A stretch of DNA of 64,000 bases, taken from a plasmid. The stretch lies in the sequence record NZ_CP025192.1; one strand, written 5' to 3'. Shown here in pieces: positions 672-7,932 of the stretch. The position numbers and the translations under genes were made by a program. The first letter of the stretch is position 1; each line of letters starts with the position of its first letter. The notes beneath the pieces are model-generated. The model made no database searches. It was not told where the DNA came from and saw nothing but the letters and a program-made list of their open reading frames with translations.

Positions 672-1436
672 TCAGAAGAACAGCCGGACGCCGGTCAGGA
701 AGGCCCAGCCGCCCACGTCCTCACCCTCGTTGCGGGCGTAGCGCGCGGTGTCGCCGAGCTTCCGCTCGTAGCTGACGCCAATGTAGGGCGACACCTCGCG
801 GGTGACCTCGTAGCGCAGCCGCAGCCCGACCTCGACGTCGTTTAAGCCGCTGCCGATGTCGCGTTCGGGCACCTTCTGGAGCGCGAAGTTGGCCTCGACG
901 TTGGGCTGGAGCACCAGCCGCTGCGTGATGTAGGCGTCGTAGGAGATCTCGGCGCGCGCCGAGAGGTCGCCCTTCTCGCTGACGAAGCCCTGGAGGTCGA
1001 CCTCGAACATGCCGGGCGCCAGCCCCTGCAGGCCGATGACGCCGTAGAAGCGGTCGGGGCGCGGGCGGATGTCGTAGCGGACACCGGCCTGGAAGTCCCA
1101 GTAGTAGCCGATCAGGCGCGAGTAGAGCAGTTGGACTTCGGCGTCCTCCACCCGGCCATTCCGCGCCGTCTCGCCTTCGGTCTTCAGCCAGACGCGGTTG
1201 ACGTCGCCGCCATACCAGGCCTGCCCGTCCCAACGGCCGATGTTCGGGCCGTCCAGTCCCCAGCCGTATTCGAGCTTCTCGAACAGTACCGCGCCGGTGA
1301 ACACTTCATGGCTGAACGGAGGCTCCGTGCTGTGCTGCATCGCCTGCGCATGCGCCGGTGCGACCTGGAGGATGCCCAAGGTCAGGGCGGCCAGGGAAGC
1401 GGCAGCAGTCAGGACGCTCTTGATCTTCATGACCAT
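672..1436 (-). CDS. copB: copper resistance outer-membrane protein CopB/PcoB family
   Basis: Signal peptide MVMKIKSVLTAAASLAALTLG followed by CopB-like beta-barrel sequence. It starts right at the copA stop. The longer ORF start at 1643 overlaps copA and is rejected. Confidence 0.8.
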   Translation of the reverse strand: MVMKIKSVLTAAASLAALTLGILQVAPAHAQAMQHSTEPPFSHEVFTGAVLFEKLEYGWGLDGPNIGRWDGQAWYGGDVNRVWLKTEGETARNGRVEDAEVQLLYSRLIGYYWDFQAGVRYDIRPRPDRFYGVIGLQGLAPGMFEVDLQGFVSEKGDLSARAEISYDAYITQRLVLQPNVEANFALQKVPERDIGSGLNDVEVGLRLRYEVTREVSPYIGVSYERKLGDTARYARNEGEDVGGWAFLTGVRLFF

Positions 1437-3367
1437 CACCGTGCCGAGGCCGTCTGGCGCGCCGGAACCACGGACACCTTGCGCATCATCCCGGTCTCCA
1501 TGTGGTAGAGCATGTGGCAGTGGAAGGCCCAGCCGCCGGGTGCGTCGGCCTCGATGTCCACGTCGACCGTCGAGCCGGGCTTGATGTTGACCGTGTGCAG
1601 CAAGGGGTTCTCGGCCCCGTTGCCGACCTGCGGCATCATCCACATGCCGTGCAGGTGCATCGGGTGGTTCATCATGGTCTCGTTGACGAAGCGGAAGCGC
1701 GCCCGCTCGCCGAGATGGAGTTGGATGGGCTGGGCCCGGCTGAAGTTGTTGCCGTTGATGGACCAGAAGTACCGCTCCATGTTGCCGGTCAGCCGGATCT
1801 CGATGACGCGGGTCGGCTCGCGCACGGGGTAGAGCGGCTTGGCGGCCCGCAGGTCGCGGTAGGACAGCACGCGGGCGCCCGGCGGGGCGCCGACGTCGTT
1901 CACCAGCGGGTCCGGCATCGCCATGCCGCCATGGTCCATTCCGGCCATTGCACCGGCGCCCGCCGCGCCATTGTTCATGTTGGGCATGCTGCCGTGGTCC
2001 ATGCCAGCCATGGAGCCCTGCTGCATGCCCTGCGGGCCTCCGGCGGGCATCTGCATTGCCGAGTGATCCATGCCAGCCATGCTTCCATGGTTCATGCCGC
2101 CCACGGACCCTTGCTGGGTGCCCATGGAGCCTCCAGCGGGCATCTGCATGGCGGAGTGGTCCATGCCGCCCATGTCCATCGGCGCGACATGGCCGGGCGC
2201 GTCCACCTCCGGCATCGGGGTTCCGCGGTCCAGCCCCTTGGGCCCGTAGTTCATGCCCATGTCGGCCATGGTCAGGACCGGGCGCGGGCGGTGCTGCGGC
2301 AGGGGCAGGGCGGGCAGGCCCTCCCGGGTGGCCAGGCTGAACTGCGCGAAACCCTGGCGCCCCATGGATTCCGCCAGCACCTGGTACTGGCGGCCGTCGC
2401 CCGGGCGGACCAGCACGTCGAAGGTCTCGGCCGGGGCGATGCGGAATTCATCGATAGTGACGGGGCGGACGTTGTTGCCGTGCGCCTGGACCACGGTCAT
2501 ATCGAGTCCGGGAATGCGCACGTCGAAATGCGTCATGGCGCCGCTGTTGATGAAGCGTAGGCGCACCGTCTCGCCCGGCCGGAACACGCCGGTGAAGTTC
2601 TGCGCCGGGGTGTGGCCGTTGACCAGGTAGGTATAGCCGCCGACATCCTCGATGTCGGTCGGGTCCATCCGCATGTCGCCCCACATGACGCGGTCGGAGA
2701 CGATGGCCGAGCGCGCGGCGGCGTCCGGCGCGCGGCGGAGCTCGCCGACCAGGCTGGCCAGGGTACGCTTGTTGTAGTTGTAGTAGCCGGGGTCGCGCTT
2801 GAGGTTGGCGATGACGTGGCTCGGCGTCTCGTCCGTCCAGTCCGACAACTGGACGATGTAGTCGCGGTCGTAGCCGAAAGGCTCCGGCGTCGCGGGGTCG
2901 ATGACGATGGAGCCGTAGATGCCGGACTGCTCCTGCACGCCCGAATGGCTGTGGTACCAATAGGTGCCAGCCTGCACGAGCGGGAAGCGGTACTGGTGCG
3001 TCCCGCCCGCGTCGATGCCCTGGAAGCCGTCGCTGATGCCCGGCACGCCATCCTGGCTGCTCGGCAGGATCAGGCCGTGCCAGTGGATCGAGGTGTGCTC
3101 GCGGAGTTGGTTGGTCACGTTGACCACCACTTCCTCGCCCTCGCGGAAGCGCAGGACAGGGCCGGGGATCTGCCCGTTGATGGCCATGGCCGGACGGCGG
3201 CGCCCGGTGATGTTGGCCGTCACGTGGGACAGGGTCAGGTTGAACTCGCGCGGCATCGCCCGCCCGACGGCGGGCTGCGCCAGGGCGTCGGGCGCGGCGG
3301 CGGGAAAGGCCAGGGCGGCGACCCCGAGCCCGAGGGCCTGCCGCCTGCTGAGCTTTTCATTGGTCAT
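1436..3367 (-). CDS. copA: multicopper oxidase CopA/PcoA
   Basis: Tat signal RRQALGLG, cupredoxin HWHG and HSH motifs, a Met/His-rich insert (MDHSAMQMPAGG repeats) and C-terminal HCHMLYHM. Confidence 0.9.
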   Translation of the reverse strand: MTNEKLSRRQALGLGVAALAFPAAAPDALAQPAVGRAMPREFNLTLSHVTANITGRRRPAMAINGQIPGPVLRFREGEEVVVNVTNQLREHTSIHWHGLILPSSQDGVPGISDGFQGIDAGGTHQYRFPLVQAGTYWYHSHSGVQEQSGIYGSIVIDPATPEPFGYDRDYIVQLSDWTDETPSHVIANLKRDPGYYNYNKRTLASLVGELRRAPDAAARSAIVSDRVMWGDMRMDPTDIEDVGGYTYLVNGHTPAQNFTGVFRPGETVRLRFINSGAMTHFDVRIPGLDMTVVQAHGNNVRPVTIDEFRIAPAETFDVLVRPGDGRQYQVLAESMGRQGFAQFSLATREGLPALPLPQHRPRPVLTMADMGMNYGPKGLDRGTPMPEVDAPGHVAPMDMGGMDHSAMQMPAGGSMGTQQGSVGGMNHGSMAGMDHSAMQMPAGGPQGMQQGSMAGMDHGSMPNMNNGAAGAGAMAGMDHGGMAMPDPLVNDVGAPPGARVLSYRDLRAAKPLYPVREPTRVIEIRLTGNMERYFWSINGNNFSRAQPIQLHLGERARFRFVNETMMNHPMHLHGMWMMPQVGNGAENPLLHTVNIKPGSTVDVDIEADAPGGWAFHCHMLYHMETGMMRKVSVVPARQTASAR

Positions 3368-3370
3368 CGT

Positions 3371-3526
3371 TCAATCCTTGGCCGCGACCGGCGCGGCATG
3401 GTCCTGCTCCTGAGCGCGTCCGCGGTCACCAAAGGCTTGGTGGGCCGAGGCCGCGGGCCGGGTCTGCGCCGCGACGGCGACAACGGCCATGGCGGCCGCC
3501 GCGATGGAGGTGACAAGGCGCATCCG
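3371..3526 (-). CDS. small putative exported protein (about 50 aa) upstream of copA
   Basis: ORF MRLVTSIAAAAMAVVAVAAQT has a signal-like N-terminus. No recognisable family. Confidence 0.25.
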   Translation of the reverse strand, partial: RMRLVTSIAAAAMAVVAVAAQTRPAASAHQAFGDRGRAQEQDHAAPVAAKD

Positions 3527-3693
3527 TGAGCTTCCCCGGTGGACACAGCGTGGGCGGGTCAACGGCTCGCCCGCCGAAGTCGATGGGGCCAGGATGTCCA
3601 CCAACTACGAGCCGGAGATTGCCCAAGTGTGACAAGATATTTCAGCCATCCGCCATCCGCTGTGCGCCGAGAGGCTGGCGGCACCCTAGCCGA

Positions 3694-3722
3694 TTGACCA
3701 TATCCCTACCAGGGGGATAGGA
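3694..3722 (+). promoter_or_regulatory. promoter-operator module: TTGACC then TATCCCTACCAGGGGGATAG (inverted repeat TATCCC-N7-GGGATA around a G tract)
   Basis: Nearly identical to the module at 5354-5382 that precedes the RcnR/CsoR-family gene. It lies 84 bp upstream of the 3806 ORF, on the same strand as the TTGACC -35-like hexamer. Confidence 0.5.
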
Positions 3723-3805
3723 CAAATGCATGCATCTCGCTCCTCCCCTCCGTTTCCCGCAGCGTTTCGTGCCTGGCCATCACCGGCGGAGCGGGGAGTT
3801 CCTGG

Positions 3806-5317
3806 ATGCCGCGTCAGGAACGCGTCCGCCGCCTTGCCAAGCAGGTCTGGCCCATGCGTGACGGCAGAGACCGCTCCGCCGTCGGCTTCGCCGCCTTCGC
3901 CTCGGGCTGGAGCGTGATGTCGCTGGAGATGCTGGACGGACGCCTGATGGCGCCGGTCTTCGGCCAGACGATTCACCAGTGGGGCGCCATCATCGGCACC
4001 GCGCTGGCCTTCATGTCACTCGGCTACTGGGCCGGAGGACGCTTGGGCGGGCGGGCGAACGCCGCCAGGCTGCTGCCGCTGCTGCTGGCAATCGCCGCCT
4101 GCGCGGCGGCCCTGACGCCTTGGATCGGTCGCCCGCTGGCCAGTGCCCTCGAAAACCTGCTCGGCCCTTTGGCGGGAGCCGTCGCTACCTCGGCGGTGCT
4201 GATCGGCCCGCCCGCCTTCACCCTGGCCGCCGTCTCGCCACTCTGCGTGGCGCGGCTGGCGGCCTCCGGCTCTCCCGCCAAGGCCTCGGGCAGCATTTCA
4301 GCGCTGGCCGCGCTGGGGAGCATTGGCGGTACCTTCTTCGCCGCGTTCTATGCCATCCCCTATATGGGTCTGACGGCAGGCTACGCCTCCGCCTCCTTGC
4401 TGTCCGCCGCCGCCGCTTTGGCTACCGGCCTGGCCCCATTGCGCGCGGCACTGGTGATGGCACCGCTCGCTCTCGGCATCTGGGCCGAGCGGGCCCAGGC
4501 CAGTCGCTTCACCGAGTATTTCGAGACGATCTACAACACAGTGATGGTCTGGGACGCCCCGGAGGCGACCTACCTGCTGTTGAACTCGCCGCTCGCCGTG
4601 CAGTCGGCCCGGCGCAAAGACGGCCGCTTGACCGGCTCGTACTGGGAAATGATGGCGGCGGTGCCGTCCCTGACCCAGGGTCGGGACTCGCTGTTCCTGG
4701 GCGTAGCCGGAGGCTCGGCGGTGGATGCCATGACGAAGGCATGGGCGGACGTGCGGAGCACCGGCGTGGAGATCGACCCCGGCGTCACCGACGTCGCCCG
4801 GCGCCACTTCGGCCTGACCATTCCAGTGACGCATGACGACGCGCGCCGCTTCGTCGAAACGAGCCAGACGCAGTTCGACATCATCGTGGTCGACCTCTAC
4901 GCCACCGGCCAGATCCCCTCCCACGTCGCCACGGTGGAGTTCTTCCAGGCAGTGTCGCGGCGGCTCCGCTCCGGCGGCGTGGTGGCAGTGAACGTCTTCG
5001 GGGCCGGAGACCCTCGCAGCATCGTGGCACCCATGGCGGCGACGATGATGGCGGCTTTCCCAAGCGTGCTGGCGACCCAGACGGGCAGCGGCAACACTAT
5101 CCTGCTGGCTTGGCAAGAGCCTGTCGCGGTCGAGCAGGCGAGGGAGATGCTGGACGCCACGCCAGCCAGCGCGGCCTCGGCATCAACGAGAATGCAGGCC
5201 ACGCTGCGGGAAGCCAGCCTGGTGGCCAATGGCGCGGTCCCGCTGACCGACGAGTTGTCGGACATGGACACTCGGGCTGCCCGCGCCGTGGCCGCCCAAC
5301 GCCGTGCGCCGCGCTGA
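3806..5317 (+). CDS. fused polytopic membrane domain / spermidine-synthase-like (class I methyltransferase fold) protein
   Basis: N-terminal half has multiple TM helices. C-terminal half has the spermidine-synthase-like motifs GVAGGSAVDA and DIIVVDLY. Confidence 0.75.
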   Translation: MPRQERVRRLAKQVWPMRDGRDRSAVGFAAFASGWSVMSLEMLDGRLMAPVFGQTIHQWGAIIGTALAFMSLGYWAGGRLGGRANAARLLPLLLAIAACAAALTPWIGRPLASALENLLGPLAGAVATSAVLIGPPAFTLAAVSPLCVARLAASGSPAKASGSISALAALGSIGGTFFAAFYAIPYMGLTAGYASASLLSAAAALATGLAPLRAALVMAPLALGIWAERAQASRFTEYFETIYNTVMVWDAPEATYLLLNSPLAVQSARRKDGRLTGSYWEMMAAVPSLTQGRDSLFLGVAGGSAVDAMTKAWADVRSTGVEIDPGVTDVARRHFGLTIPVTHDDARRFVETSQTQFDIIVVDLYATGQIPSHVATVEFFQAVSRRLRSGGVVAVNVFGAGDPRSIVAPMAATMMAAFPSVLATQTGSGNTILLAWQEPVAVEQAREMLDATPASAASASTRMQATLREASLVANGAVPLTDELSDMDTRAARAVAAQRRAPR

Positions 5318-5353
5318 CAAGACGGAATGGCCGCCGTTCCTAGGCCGACCGGC

Positions 5354-5382
5354 TTGACGGTATCCCTACCGGGGGGATAGCT
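5354..5382 (+). promoter_or_regulatory. promoter-operator module: TTGACG then TATCCCTACCGGGGGGATAG, a candidate autoregulatory RcnR/CsoR-type operator
   Basis: A G6 tract flanked by the inverted repeat TATCCC/GGGATA resembles the RcnR-type TACT-G6-N-AGTA operator architecture. It sits 8 bp upstream of the regulator start, with an AGGAGA RBS at 5385. Confidence 0.55.
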
Positions 5383-5389
5383 CAGGAGA

Positions 5390-5668
5390 ATGACAGCCCC
5401 CCATGTCCATGCATCGCATCCGGAGATCGTGAAGCGCCTGAAGCGCGCCGACGGCCATCTCCGCAGCGTGGTCGAGATGATCGAGCAGGGCCGCCCCTGC
5501 CTCGACATCGTGCAGCAACTCCATGCGGTCGAGGCGGCCATCGCCAACGCCAAGCGGACCCTGATCCACGACCACCTCGACCACTGCCTCGACGATGTCG
5601 TGGGCGCGGTGCCGCGCGCCGACCGCGGCCCGATCGACGAGTTCAAGGCCATCACGAAGTATCTCTGA
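5390..5668 (+). CDS. rcnR: CsoR/RcnR/FrmR-family (DUF156) metal-sensing transcriptional repressor
   Basis: 92 aa. N-terminal His cluster HVHASH. W-X-Y-Z fingerprint residues Cys (RPCLD), His (HDH) and His-Cys (LDHC). Immediately upstream of rcnA. Confidence 0.8.
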   Translation: MTAPHVHASHPEIVKRLKRADGHLRSVVEMIEQGRPCLDIVQQLHAVEAAIANAKRTLIHDHLDHCLDDVVGAVPRADRGPIDEFKAITKYL

Positions 5669-5678
5669 AGGCGCCTCG

Positions 5679-6857
5679 ATGACTCCTTTCTCCGAACTGC
5701 TGGCCCAAGGATCAGCCCACGCCTGGCTTTTCGTTCCCAGCGCCATCCTGCTGGGAGCCCTGCACGGCCTGGAGCCAGGCCATTCGAAGACCATGATGGC
5801 GGCCTTCATCGTCGCCGTTCGCGGCACCGTCACGCAGGCGGTTCTGCTCGGAGTAGCGGCGACCTTCTCGCACACGCTGGTGGTCTGGGGCATCGGACTC
5901 GGGGGCCTGTACCTTTGGAAGGGCTTCGACGCCGAGACCGCGGAGCCGTACTTCCAGCTTGCCTCCGCCGTGGCGATCATCGCCATGGCCATCTGGATGC
6001 TGTGGCGGACCTGGCGGGACCAGCAGGCCAGCAGTGCCCACGGACACTCGCATGACCATGGGCACCACCATGGCCATGAGCACAGCCATAGTGAGGGGCA
6101 TGGCCACAGCCACAGCCACGGCGAGGAGGTGCGGCGCATCGACACCGGCCATGGCGTCGTCGCCCTGGAGGTGTTCGAGGACGGCGTTCCGCCGCGCTGG
6201 CGGCTGCGGTCGGAGCGTGGTCCGCACTGGGCGGCCGAGGATGTGACGGTGGAGACCCTTCGTCCGGACGGGCAGCGCCAGAGCTTCGGCTTCGTCGACC
6301 GCGGCGGCTACCTCGAGTCCACGACCGATATTCCAGAGCCTCACGAGTTCACCGCCCGCCTGAGCCTGTCCCACGGCAACCATGCCCACGACTACGAGGT
6401 GGTCTTCGCGGAGCAGGGCGACGGTCACGAGCAGGAGCCTCTGGCTCCCGGTGCCTTCGCGACCACGGACGGCTACCAGGATGCTCATGAGCGCGCCCAT
6501 GCCAACGACATCCAGCGCCGGTTCGCCGGACGCGAGGTGACGACCTGGCAGATCGTGCTGTTCGGGCTGACGGGCGGGCTGGTGCCGTGCCCGGCCGCGA
6601 TCACGGTGCTGCTGATCTGCCTCCAGCTTCAGGAGTTCACCCTCGGCGCGGCGCTGGTGCTGTGCTTCAGCATCGGCCTCGCCATCACCCTGGTGACCGT
6701 CGGCGTCATCGCCGCGACCGGCATGCGCCACGCGTCCCGCCGCTGGTCGGGCTTCGACACCTTCATGCGCCGGGCGCCTTATGCCTCGGGCGCGCTCATC
6801 ATCCTGGTGGGCTTCTATGTCGGTGCCGTCGCGCTGACGCAGATCGCGGCGGCCTGA
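5679..6857 (+). CDS. rcnA: nickel/cobalt efflux permease RcnA (NicO family)
   Basis: HGLEPGHSK motif, a His-rich cytoplasmic loop (HGHSHDHGHHHGHEHSHSEGHGHSHSHGEE) and C-terminal GGLVPCPAAI. Start taken at MTPFSELL, not at the upstream in-frame extension. Confidence 0.9.
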   Translation: MTPFSELLAQGSAHAWLFVPSAILLGALHGLEPGHSKTMMAAFIVAVRGTVTQAVLLGVAATFSHTLVVWGIGLGGLYLWKGFDAETAEPYFQLASAVAIIAMAIWMLWRTWRDQQASSAHGHSHDHGHHHGHEHSHSEGHGHSHSHGEEVRRIDTGHGVVALEVFEDGVPPRWRLRSERGPHWAAEDVTVETLRPDGQRQSFGFVDRGGYLESTTDIPEPHEFTARLSLSHGNHAHDYEVVFAEQGDGHEQEPLAPGAFATTDGYQDAHERAHANDIQRRFAGREVTTWQIVLFGLTGGLVPCPAAITVLLICLQLQEFTLGAALVLCFSIGLAITLVTVGVIAATGMRHASRRWSGFDTFMRRAPYASGALIILVGFYVGAVALTQIAAA

Positions 6858-7083
6858 TGCGGGCGTGTTCCGGCTGCGTGGGCGAAAGCTCAGGCCGGAA
6901 CGCGCAGCCCCGGACCTTACCCCTGCTATGGCATGCGCAGCCCGGAAAACTCAGGGACGGCCATCGGGTCGGCCACTCTTGCTTGACAGACCAGCACGCC
7001 ATTCACCATCCTGGGCGCAAGGGGACATCCGCGATCGCCCCGTGAGGCTTCGGCCGAAGCATCGCGTCCGACACTCCACAACC

Positions 7084-7932
7084 ATGGAGGGGACGCCCAT
7101 GCCTGCACCTGACACCATCACCACCACACAGCTCGCTCGGCTCGTCGGCCTGCCCGATGCACCGGTGCTGCTCGACGTACGGACCGAGGAGGACTACGCG
7201 GCCGACCCGCGCCTGCTCCCGGCTTCCTTCCGGCGCGAACATCGCGACGTGACCACCTGGATGGCGGGCCACGCCGGTCGGCACGTGGTGGTCGTCTGCC
7301 AGCGCGGCCTCAAGCTCAGCCACGGTGTCGCCGCCTGGCTGCGTCACGGCGGTGCCAGGGCCGAGGTGCTCGAGGGCGGCTTCGAGGCATGGGCTGCCGA
7401 AGGCCACCTGCTGGTGCATCCGAACCGCCTGCCGACACGCGATGCGCAGGGGCGCACGGTGTGGGTGACCCGTTCCCGGCCCAAGGTGGACCGGATTGCC
7501 TGCCCCTGGCTGATCCGGCGCTTCGTGGATCCGTCCGCCGTCTTCCTCTTCGTCGCGCCGTCCGAGGTCGGCGCGGTGGCCGAACGCTTCGGGGCCGCGC
7601 CCTTTGACGTCGAGGGGGTGTTCTGGAGCCATCGTAGCGAGACCTGCACCTTCGACACCATGGTCCAGGAGTTCGGATTGACCTCTGAGCCGCTGCTCCG
7701 GCTGGCGGAGATCGTCCGCGGCGCCGACACCGCCCGGCCCGACCTCGCGCCGCAGGCGGCGGGGCTGCTCGCGGCGTCCCTGGGCCTGTCCCGCATGCAC
7801 CGGGATGACCTGGCGCAACTCGACGCCGCAATGGGTCTGTACGATGCCTTCTACCGCTGGAGCCGCGATGCCGTCGCCGAGACCCACAACTGGCCAGCGT
7901 CGCCGAGCGCAGCTGGGAGGTCTGGCCAGTGA
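7084..7932 (+). CDS. rhodanese-domain / chromate-resistance ChrB C-terminal-domain protein
   Basis: N-terminal rhodanese-like fold (LLDVRTEEDY...VVVVCQRG) followed by a ChrB-C-like segment (VDRIACPWLIRRFVD). It overlaps the chrA start. Confidence 0.7.
   Translation: MEGTPMPAPDTITTTQLARLVGLPDAPVLLDVRTEEDYAADPRLLPASFRREHRDVTTWMAGHAGRHVVVVCQRGLKLSHGVAAWLRHGGARAEVLEGGFEAWAAEGHLLVHPNRLPTRDAQGRTVWVTRSRPKVDRIACPWLIRRFVDPSAVFLFVAPSEVGAVAERFGAAPFDVEGVFWSHRSETCTFDTMVQEFGLTSEPLLRLAEIVRGADTARPDLAPQAAGLLAASLGLSRMHRDDLAQLDAAMGLYDAFYRWSRDAVAETHNWPASPSAAGRSGQ

Follow-up and report, generated by a model that had tools for sequence, protein, structure and literature searches.

An orphan NreA-type promoter-operator before a fused membrane/spermidine-synthase-like gene on a Roseomonas mucosa plasmid

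In Mesorhizobium, the metal-sensing repressor NreA acts on a 39-bp minimal Ni-inducible promoter with a −35 TTG and, about 20 bp to the right, a −10 TAGNAT (Jensen & Griffitts 2025, PMC12724321). The spacer between them is filled by the operator, a 19-bp dyad with the consensus TATCCYCTCCRGGRGGATA whose TCC-N9-GGA arms are essential, and the transcript is leaderless, starting at the A of the ATG (PMC12724321). Mutagenesis of NreA has marked out metal residues (C38, H63, H66 and C67) and DNA residues (R17, R20, Q44 and K91), and promoters of this type are portable, even to E. coli (PMC12724321). Two further systems are close: mreA–mrdH of Pseudomonas putida, in which MrdH is a Ni/Cd/Zn resistance determinant according to the citation of Haritha et al. 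2009 in PMC3056050, and ncrABCY of Leptospirillum ferriphilum, in which NcrB binds ATCCCCCTGGGGGGGAT and is released by Ni2+ (PMC3046157). Here we describe two copies of an NreA-type promoter-operator on a 64-kb stretch of the plasmid record NZ_CP025192.1, hereafter the window. The downstream copy (site 2) stands before an nreA-like regulator gene, which is followed by the gene of an RcnA/MrdH-type efflux pump; the upstream copy (site 1) stands before a gene for a polytopic membrane domain fused to a spermidine-synthase-like domain, hereafter the fusion gene. With a probability of about 0.7, we read this arrangement as a one-off promoter capture, in which the native nreA–mrdH module is joined by a complete stray copy that would make the fusion gene Ni/Co-responsive on this plasmid. 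The pairing is no conserved regulon relationship and assigns no general function to the fusion-protein family.

Two copies of one module and the regulator to which it belongs

The 19-mer TATCCCTACCNGGGGGATA occurs at two sites in the window, both on the + strand. With up to three mismatches allowed, there are 2 matches in 64 kb compared with 0.02 expected from shuffles, and allowing a fourth mismatch adds no further match. These counts confirm the near-identical modules 1.6 kb apart that an earlier note on this DNA, the original prediction, had pointed out. A repeat search extends the pair to 3685–3720 and 5345–5380, that is 36 nt at 81% identity with a spacing of 1660 bp. Each operator is preceded by a TTGAC(C/G) box that begins 7 nt 5′ of it, leaving a gap of 1 nt between box and dyad, and is followed by a −10-like hexamer, TAGGAC at site 1 and TAGCTC at site 2. 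Both operators agree with the NreA consensus at 17 of 19 positions and keep the essential TCC-N9-GGA, in support of the original prediction, which took the motif for a CsoR/RcnR-family (DUF156) operator. Several of its measurements need correction. The module described there as 29 bp is 27 nt as written; the end coordinate of 5382 was about right, and the downstream copy begins at 5354; and the operator, placed 8 bp before the regulator, ends further off, the ATG at 5390 being 10 nt past its last base and 9 nt past the final G of GATAG. The idea that the motif is a mobile repeat was considered and rejected, as the motif is not dispersed: there are two copies in the window and one in each related locus.

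At site 2, the ATG at 5390 coincides with the predicted transcription start, 36 nt on from the first base of the −35 box, and from this position we predict that the regulator mRNA is leaderless. Homology between the cassette and its relatives begins, by blastn, at 5352–5354, which is the −35 box itself. Nine loci with a 97–99% identical regulator (L062–L070 in our numbering) each carry one TTGAC-N2-ATCCCTACC(A/G)GGGGGATAGG, ending 8–10 nt before the regulator ATG. Scanning metagenomes for the exact pattern gave 12 sites, each immediately preceding the gene of a regulator homologue of 62–88% identity, with the ATG 36–37 nt from the start of TTGAC and with unrelated flanks. All six plasmid matches examined, namely P. 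putida pWW0 mreA–mrdH and those of P. aeruginosa, Mesorhizobium, Ruegeria, Azospirillum and a Geminicoccaceae bacterium, likewise have the module 5′ of the regulator, and the coordinates on S. meliloti pSymA agree with the same coupling. Altogether, the module lies directly 5′ of a regulator orthologue in 27 of 27 other loci (9 close, 12 metagenome and 6 plasmid) between flanks that are unrelated, and upstream of regulators that are 62–99% identical, conservation is confined to the module. This strong phylogenetic footprint indicates that the promoter-operator belongs to the regulator gene, and the coupling in all 27 loci lends support to the earlier suggestion that the copy before the regulator is autoregulatory.

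The distance from module to ATG is 36–37 nt in L062–L082, L089–L090 and L092–L093. The two Pseudomonas mreA loci, L088 (pWW0, 3001–3066) and L091, differ in that about 65 nt separate the module from the annotated start of mreA, so that either the mreA mRNA carries a leader there or its start codon has been annotated wrongly. Directly upstream of nreA-like regulators from Alpha- and Gammaproteobacteria, we also observe a divergent trio of genes, for a small hypothetical protein, a HupE/UreJ-family protein and a ‘transmembrane anchor protein’ (L062–L064, L069–L070 (about 6100–7500), L090, L091 and L093). No second operator was detected near the trio in L062–L064 and L069–L070, the loci scanned. 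The window is without the trio, and the fusion gene stands in its position.

Repressors of the NreA clade are small, all-helical PF02583 proteins of about 90–95 aa, and the regulator, at 92 aa, conforms. In sequence, it comes closest to characterised NreA proteins, with 74% identity to that of Mesorhizobium, 73% to that of Nitratireductor and 60% to that of A. xylosoxidans as well as to MreA of pWW0. Identity to the CsoR proteins of B. subtilis and M. tuberculosis is 36–40%, to T. thermophilus TTHA1719 34% and to E. coli RcnR 27%, and the RcnR model NF011613 reaches 19 bits, its cut-off being 138. In the alignment, each of the eight NreA residues with tested functions has a conserved counterpart (R16, R19, C37, Q43, H62, H65, C66 and K90). 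The H-C-H-H fingerprint of RcnR (His3, Cys35, His60 and His64) is absent: the equivalent of His64 is Cys66, and the site reads C-H-(H)-C. The closest solved structure is that of the Ni sensor InrS (5fmn), and the best NCBIfam match is RicR, at 48.5 bits far under its cut-off of 175. By pairwise identity, the protein appears to be NreA-type and to sit in the NreA/MreA/NcrB clade; given the 27% identity, the C-H-(H)-C site and the 74% identity to NreA, it is not an RcnR in the strict sense, as it had been labelled. By analogy with these relatives, its signal is most likely nickel/cobalt, and we predict that it represses its own promoter and that Ni(II) relieves this repression.

The pump, whose start follows the annotation by the Prokaryotic Genome Annotation Pipeline (PGAP), is 60% identical to MrdH of P. 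putida pWW0. In precomputed Pfam annotation, its homologues in L062–L070 carry a CzcB_N-like insert between two NicO segments, the layout of an MrdH-type RcnA/CzcB chimera; at L062, the pump gene is split into two open reading frames (ORFs).

The orphan copy and the fusion gene

Site 1 has the same layout as site 2, down to an ATG at 3730 that sits at the offset of a regulator start, but the sequence 3′ of this ATG is unrelated to any regulator. It is the sole orphan among the 28 modules examined. By blastn, it aligns with the promoter of L062 at 94% over 35 nt and with that of L063 at 84% over 49 nt, the ATG included (3684/3687–3721/3732), and no homology to L062 or L063 was found past the module on either side. 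L062, L064, L075, L076 and L080 have modules with the same 26-nt core. Over 49 positions, site 1 shares 41 with L063 and 39 with each of L062 and L072, but only 35 with site 2; it is closer to foreign modules than to its neighbour and is therefore not a recent local duplicate. We thus reject a recent local tandem duplication, and the ‘duplicated’ module of the original prediction is not the product of a simple local event. Judging from these comparisons, site 1 derives from another lineage of the cassette and is an orphan, its own regulator gene having been lost. A relic of rcnR coding sequence after site 1 was sought as well; past the ATG, the only match is the 8-nt CATGCATC, which is too weak to claim.

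The module ends about 120 bp (121 bp) before the coding sequence of the fusion gene at 3854. No structured leader or riboswitch was detected in this region, as the fold of 3730–3875 is no better than that of shuffles (z = +1.15), and Rfam gave no match in the leader region between site 1 and the fusion gene. A scan for terminator-like sites found none in 3300–5800, hence none between site 1 and nreA.

The fusion gene is intact, and every invariant residue of its family is kept. Its product matches NF037959 (fused major facilitator superfamily (MFS)/spermidine synthase) at 179.6 bits against a cut-off of 40, over residues 38–446 and both domains; matches to PF01564 and PF13649 are weak. At the level of families, the earlier gene calls have thus held up: a PF02583 regulator, a NicO/RcnA-type pump and an NF037959 fusion protein. 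The AlphaFold2 model (predicted local distance difference test score 92) shows a helical membrane domain at about residues 17–232, followed by a beta-hairpin and a Rossmann domain. For this second domain, the best Foldseek matches are the spermidine synthases 3gjy and 1uir, with 3o4f also matched, at target-normalised TM-scores of 0.6–0.7. As modelled, the protein has the spermidine-synthase fold, an N-terminal beta-hairpin domain and then a Rossmann domain. Polyamine aminopropyltransferases (SpeE) are defined by a GGG(D/E)G motif for decarboxylated S-adenosylmethionine and by the second Asp of a D-x-x-D-P substrate motif. In a profile alignment to T. thermophilus SpeE (1uir), GGGEG stands opposite GvaGGa and DLTDP opposite DLy..at; the acidic residue of the first motif and the second Asp of the other are missing from the family alignment, and all SpeE equivalog models score far under their cut-offs. 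The fusion protein therefore has the right fold, but is probably not a canonical aminopropyltransferase.

Homologue N-termini and DNA homology, which to the nearest homologue spans 3853–5319, favour the ATG at 3854, about 134 bp past the operator of site 1. The distance of 84 bp given originally is true for the longest-ORF start at 3806, which is not the likely one. RefSeq records of identical DNA differ in their PGAP starts, with 3854 in HV2 (487 aa) and 3806 in HV3 (503 aa). GGGGAG lies 7 nt before the ATG at 3806; homology nevertheless favours 3854.

Whether the operator travels with the fusion gene was examined at 60 homologue loci, 56 from genomes (36–64% identity; Pseudoroseomonas, Azospirillum and various metagenome-assembled genomes) and 4 from metagenomes (85%, 82% and 67%), with up to 10 kb on each side. 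They were scanned for the operator at up to 4–5 mismatches and for a generic dyad pattern, and were searched by tblastn with the regulator, the pump, the multicopper oxidase and ChrB. An operator near the fusion gene was found at 0 of 60 loci, including those that are 85% and 82% identical; the single match at 4 mismatches, in L039, is downstream of the gene. The tblastn searches also found an NreA-like regulator, an RcnA/MrdH-like pump, a multicopper oxidase or a ChrB homologue at none of the 60 loci, and the fusion gene is absent from all 27 other regulator loci. The link between operator and fusion gene thus appears specific to this plasmid lineage. Since it is absent from every other homologue locus examined, the family should not be annotated as metal-related, and the role in metal homeostasis once proposed for this widespread family gives way to a single lineage-specific rearrangement.

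The neighbourhoods of fusion-gene orthologues hold no functional clue: the only conservation is genus-level synteny in Azospirillum, with Usp-like and TauE-like genes, and naive ORF calling is noisy in the GC-rich DNA of these regions. Distant plasmid-borne members of the family lie in unrelated contexts, among type IV secretion system, integrase and nuclease genes. At L086, on a Paracoccus marcusii plasmid (NZ_CP157013.1, 108781–110211), a distant fusion gene is divergent to chrA; none of the other distant members examined on plasmids has a metal gene beside it. In the library searched, we found no literature on fused MFS/spermidine synthases, and none that ties the family to metals.

A mosaic metal-resistance island

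The window comes from a plasmid of Roseomonas mucosa and forms a metal-resistance island of mosaic make-up (Table 1); three R. mucosa plasmids from human skin isolates are 100% identical to the region. The cop genes upstream of the fusion gene and regulator include copRS, and transposases of the IS3, IS30 and IS6 families of insertion sequences (IS) are nearby. Homology of the cop genes to another R. mucosa plasmid ends at 3644, the position at which an ars operon stands in that plasmid. Close relatives of the nreA–mrdH cassette have HupE/UreJ or other genes upstream, not the fusion gene. On the cop side, the 50-aa ORF is the N-terminal remnant (signal peptide and about 20 aa) of a 192-aa copper protein of the plastocyanin/azurin family; the gene is intact at the same position on plasmid p3 of R. 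mucosa GlSt084 (L094, 5505–6083) and mostly deleted in the window.

Table 1 Features of the window around the two promoter-operator modules
Feature	Coordinates	Strand	Details
copB, copA (multicopper oxidase)	copA 1436–3367	−	
50-aa ORF	3371–3523	−	
Orphan module copy (site 1)	3684–3732	+	−35 TTGACC 3694–3699; operator TATCCCTACCAGGGGGATA 3701–3719; −10-like TAGGAC 3718–3723; ATG 3730 (+36 offset)
Predicted leader of captured transcript	3730–3860	+	43-codon ORF from relic ATG; TGA 3858–3860 overlaps ATG 3854
Fused polytopic-membrane/spermidine-synthase-fold protein gene	3854–5317	+	487 aa (503 aa from 3806); NF037959
Native NreA-type promoter-operator (site 2)	5354–5392	+	−35 TTGACG 5354–5359; operator TATCCCTACCGGGGGGATA 5361–5379; −10-like TAGCTC 5378–5383; ATG 5390
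nreA-like metal-sensing repressor gene	5390–5668	+	92 aa; CsoR/RcnR (DUF156) family; PF02583, 77.3 bits (cut-off 22.8)
RcnA/MrdH-type (NicO family) Ni/Co efflux permease gene	5679–6857	+	NF007454, 437.8 bits (cut-off 195); PF03824; next gene after regulator
chrB, chrA	after pump (5679–6857)		

Readings of the stray promoter and comparison with known systems

In the mechanism that we propose, an apo-NreA-like tetramer would bind the 19-bp dyad in the −35/−10 spacer at both operators and block RNA polymerase. Ni(II), and probably Co(II), would bind the Cys/His site and release the repressor, freeing RNA polymerase to initiate at about 3730 and, for the regulator, at the A of its ATG (5390). At site 1, the −35 TTG, the TCC-N9-GGA arms and the TAGNAc −10 are all intact, so the single repressor encoded 1.6 kb downstream should repress this copy too. 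Recombination would have placed the stray module about 120 bp upstream of the unrelated fusion gene. In a transcript from 3730, the AUG would open the 43-codon ORF that overlaps the ATG at 3854; this overlap could give translational coupling to the fusion gene, or it could be a coincidence. As no terminator was detected, read-through into nreA–mrdH is possible, and the fusion gene may then head a longer operon in which two promoters in tandem are each controlled by an operator. Site 1 is intact and faces the fusion gene, so it is reasonable to predict for this plasmid that transcription toward that gene responds to metal; Ni/Co-responsive, NreA-repressed transcription of the gene seems plausible from the sequence.

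A number of observations weigh against this capture. TAGGAC and TAGCTC are poor sigma-70 matches, and a generic sigma-70 promoter scan of 3300–5800 found no site; such a scan is uninformative for non-canonical promoters of this kind, and the family −10 consensus TAGNAT is likewise non-canonical, yet active in Mesorhizobium constructs (PMC12724321). The 121-bp gap before the fusion gene could hold another promoter or expression-blocking signals. The metal specificity would be that of the relatives from which it is extrapolated, and the C-H-C arrangement also resembles that of the Cu(I)-sensing CsoR, with cop genes adjoining. Finally, the arrangement is available only as identical copies, on the three R. 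mucosa plasmids, so conservation cannot show selective maintenance of site 1.

In another account, which we think unlikely, site 1 is what remains, without function, of an nreA cassette destroyed by a past rearrangement, and the fusion gene uses signals in 3733–3853 or is hardly expressed, in either case independently of metals. In its favour, only one plasmid lineage has the pairing, breakpoints at about 3644, 3684, 3733, 3853 and 5352 make a patchwork of the region, IS elements are nearby, the cop-side neighbour is a truncated gene, and 121 bp separate the module from the coding sequence. Yet the module shows no decay: its −35, both operator arms, −10-like hexamer and ATG are intact, and its 26-nt core is that of functional modules elsewhere. 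Silence would be unlikely for an intact promoter whose type works even when moved to E. coli (PMC12724321), and its repressor is encoded in cis, 1.6 kb off. It is more doubtful still that selection has kept a functional stray promoter for placing the gene in the Ni regulon, with the fusion protein induced by Ni/Co in R. mucosa and truly contributing to metal tolerance. That the gene is intact with all invariant family residues, that it lies with an intact Ni-type promoter in a dense metal-resistance island and that a distant member adjoins chrA on a Paracoccus plasmid would all suit such a role. Set against this, no metal-related regulator, pump or operator turned up at any of the 60 homologue loci, the remaining distant members examined on plasmids lie in unrelated contexts, the library searched held no literature tying the family to metals, and hitch-hiking genes are common in mosaic islands. 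If it were true, selection for the stray promoter would offer a first clue to the physiology of a widespread family of orphan proteins.

We regard it as very improbable that the regulator is a CsoR-type copper sensor whose operators would link fusion gene and pump to the copper-resistance genes next to them, and not to nickel/cobalt. Cys37, His62 and Cys66 do form the arrangement of the CsoR Cu(I) site, RicR is the best NCBIfam match even at 48.5 bits of the 175 required, copA, copB and copRS are directly upstream, and some database records name relatives CsoR. But the regulator is 74% identical to the Ni-responsive NreA and 36–40% to CsoRs, and its closest solved structure, InrS, is a Ni sensor with the same C-H-C site. 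The pump encoded in its operon is an RcnA/MrdH-type Ni/Co(/Cd/Zn) exporter, the cassette travels in relatives without cop genes, and the cop homology stops at 3644, marking an independent module.

Under promoter capture, the reading that we prefer, a self-contained, repressor-controlled leaderless promoter of about 39 bp would be movable before an unrelated gene by plasmid recombination. The gene would join a metal regulon in a single step, and the plasmid would offer a natural example of how promoter capture enlarges a regulon. A testable prediction also follows for a family with no known function, namely Ni/Co induction of the fusion gene in R. mucosa.

Among the described systems, Mesorhizobium nreAXY resembles the locus in its regulator (74% identity and eight of eight key residues), in the 19-bp dyad within the −35/−10 spacer, in a TAGNxx −10 about 20 bp after the TTG, in the ATG at the predicted +1 and in a module that fits 39 bp. 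The pump differs, being NicO/RcnA–MrdH here and the cation diffusion facilitator NreX with NreY in Mesorhizobium, as does the central tract of the operator, CTACC(A/G)GGGGG here and TCTCGGGGGGG in nreAXY. The second site differs too: here, it is an orphan before a gene for neither a transporter nor a regulator, whereas the only good one in Mesorhizobium precedes the paralogous nreA2–nreX2 operon. The mreA–mrdH locus of P. putida KT2440/pWW0 shares an NreA-like regulator (60%) followed by an RcnA/CzcB-chimeric pump (60%), a setting in mobile DNA and, upstream, the same TTGACCATATCCCxxCCAGGGGGATAGG module; on pWW0, the module is about 65 nt before the annotated start and not obviously leaderless, and there is neither an orphan copy nor a fusion gene. 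NcrB is likewise a DUF156 repressor with a G/C-rich dyad and ATCC...GGAT arms, but its operator lies downstream of the ncrA transcription start (−4 to +25) and its gene is internal to the operon. In E. coli, the RcnR operator, TACT-G6-N-AGTA, lies in the divergent rcnR–rcnA intergenic region. That system has the same protein superfamily, Ni/Co sensing, a NicO-family exporter and autoregulation; it differs in regulator identity (27%), in its H-C-H-H site as opposed to C-H-(H)-C and in its divergent genes, which in the window are co-directional with operator arms TATCC/GGATA. The element is thus of a known kind, a compact leaderless promoter-operator of the NreA type, and the unusual part is the orphan copy before an uncharacterised gene.

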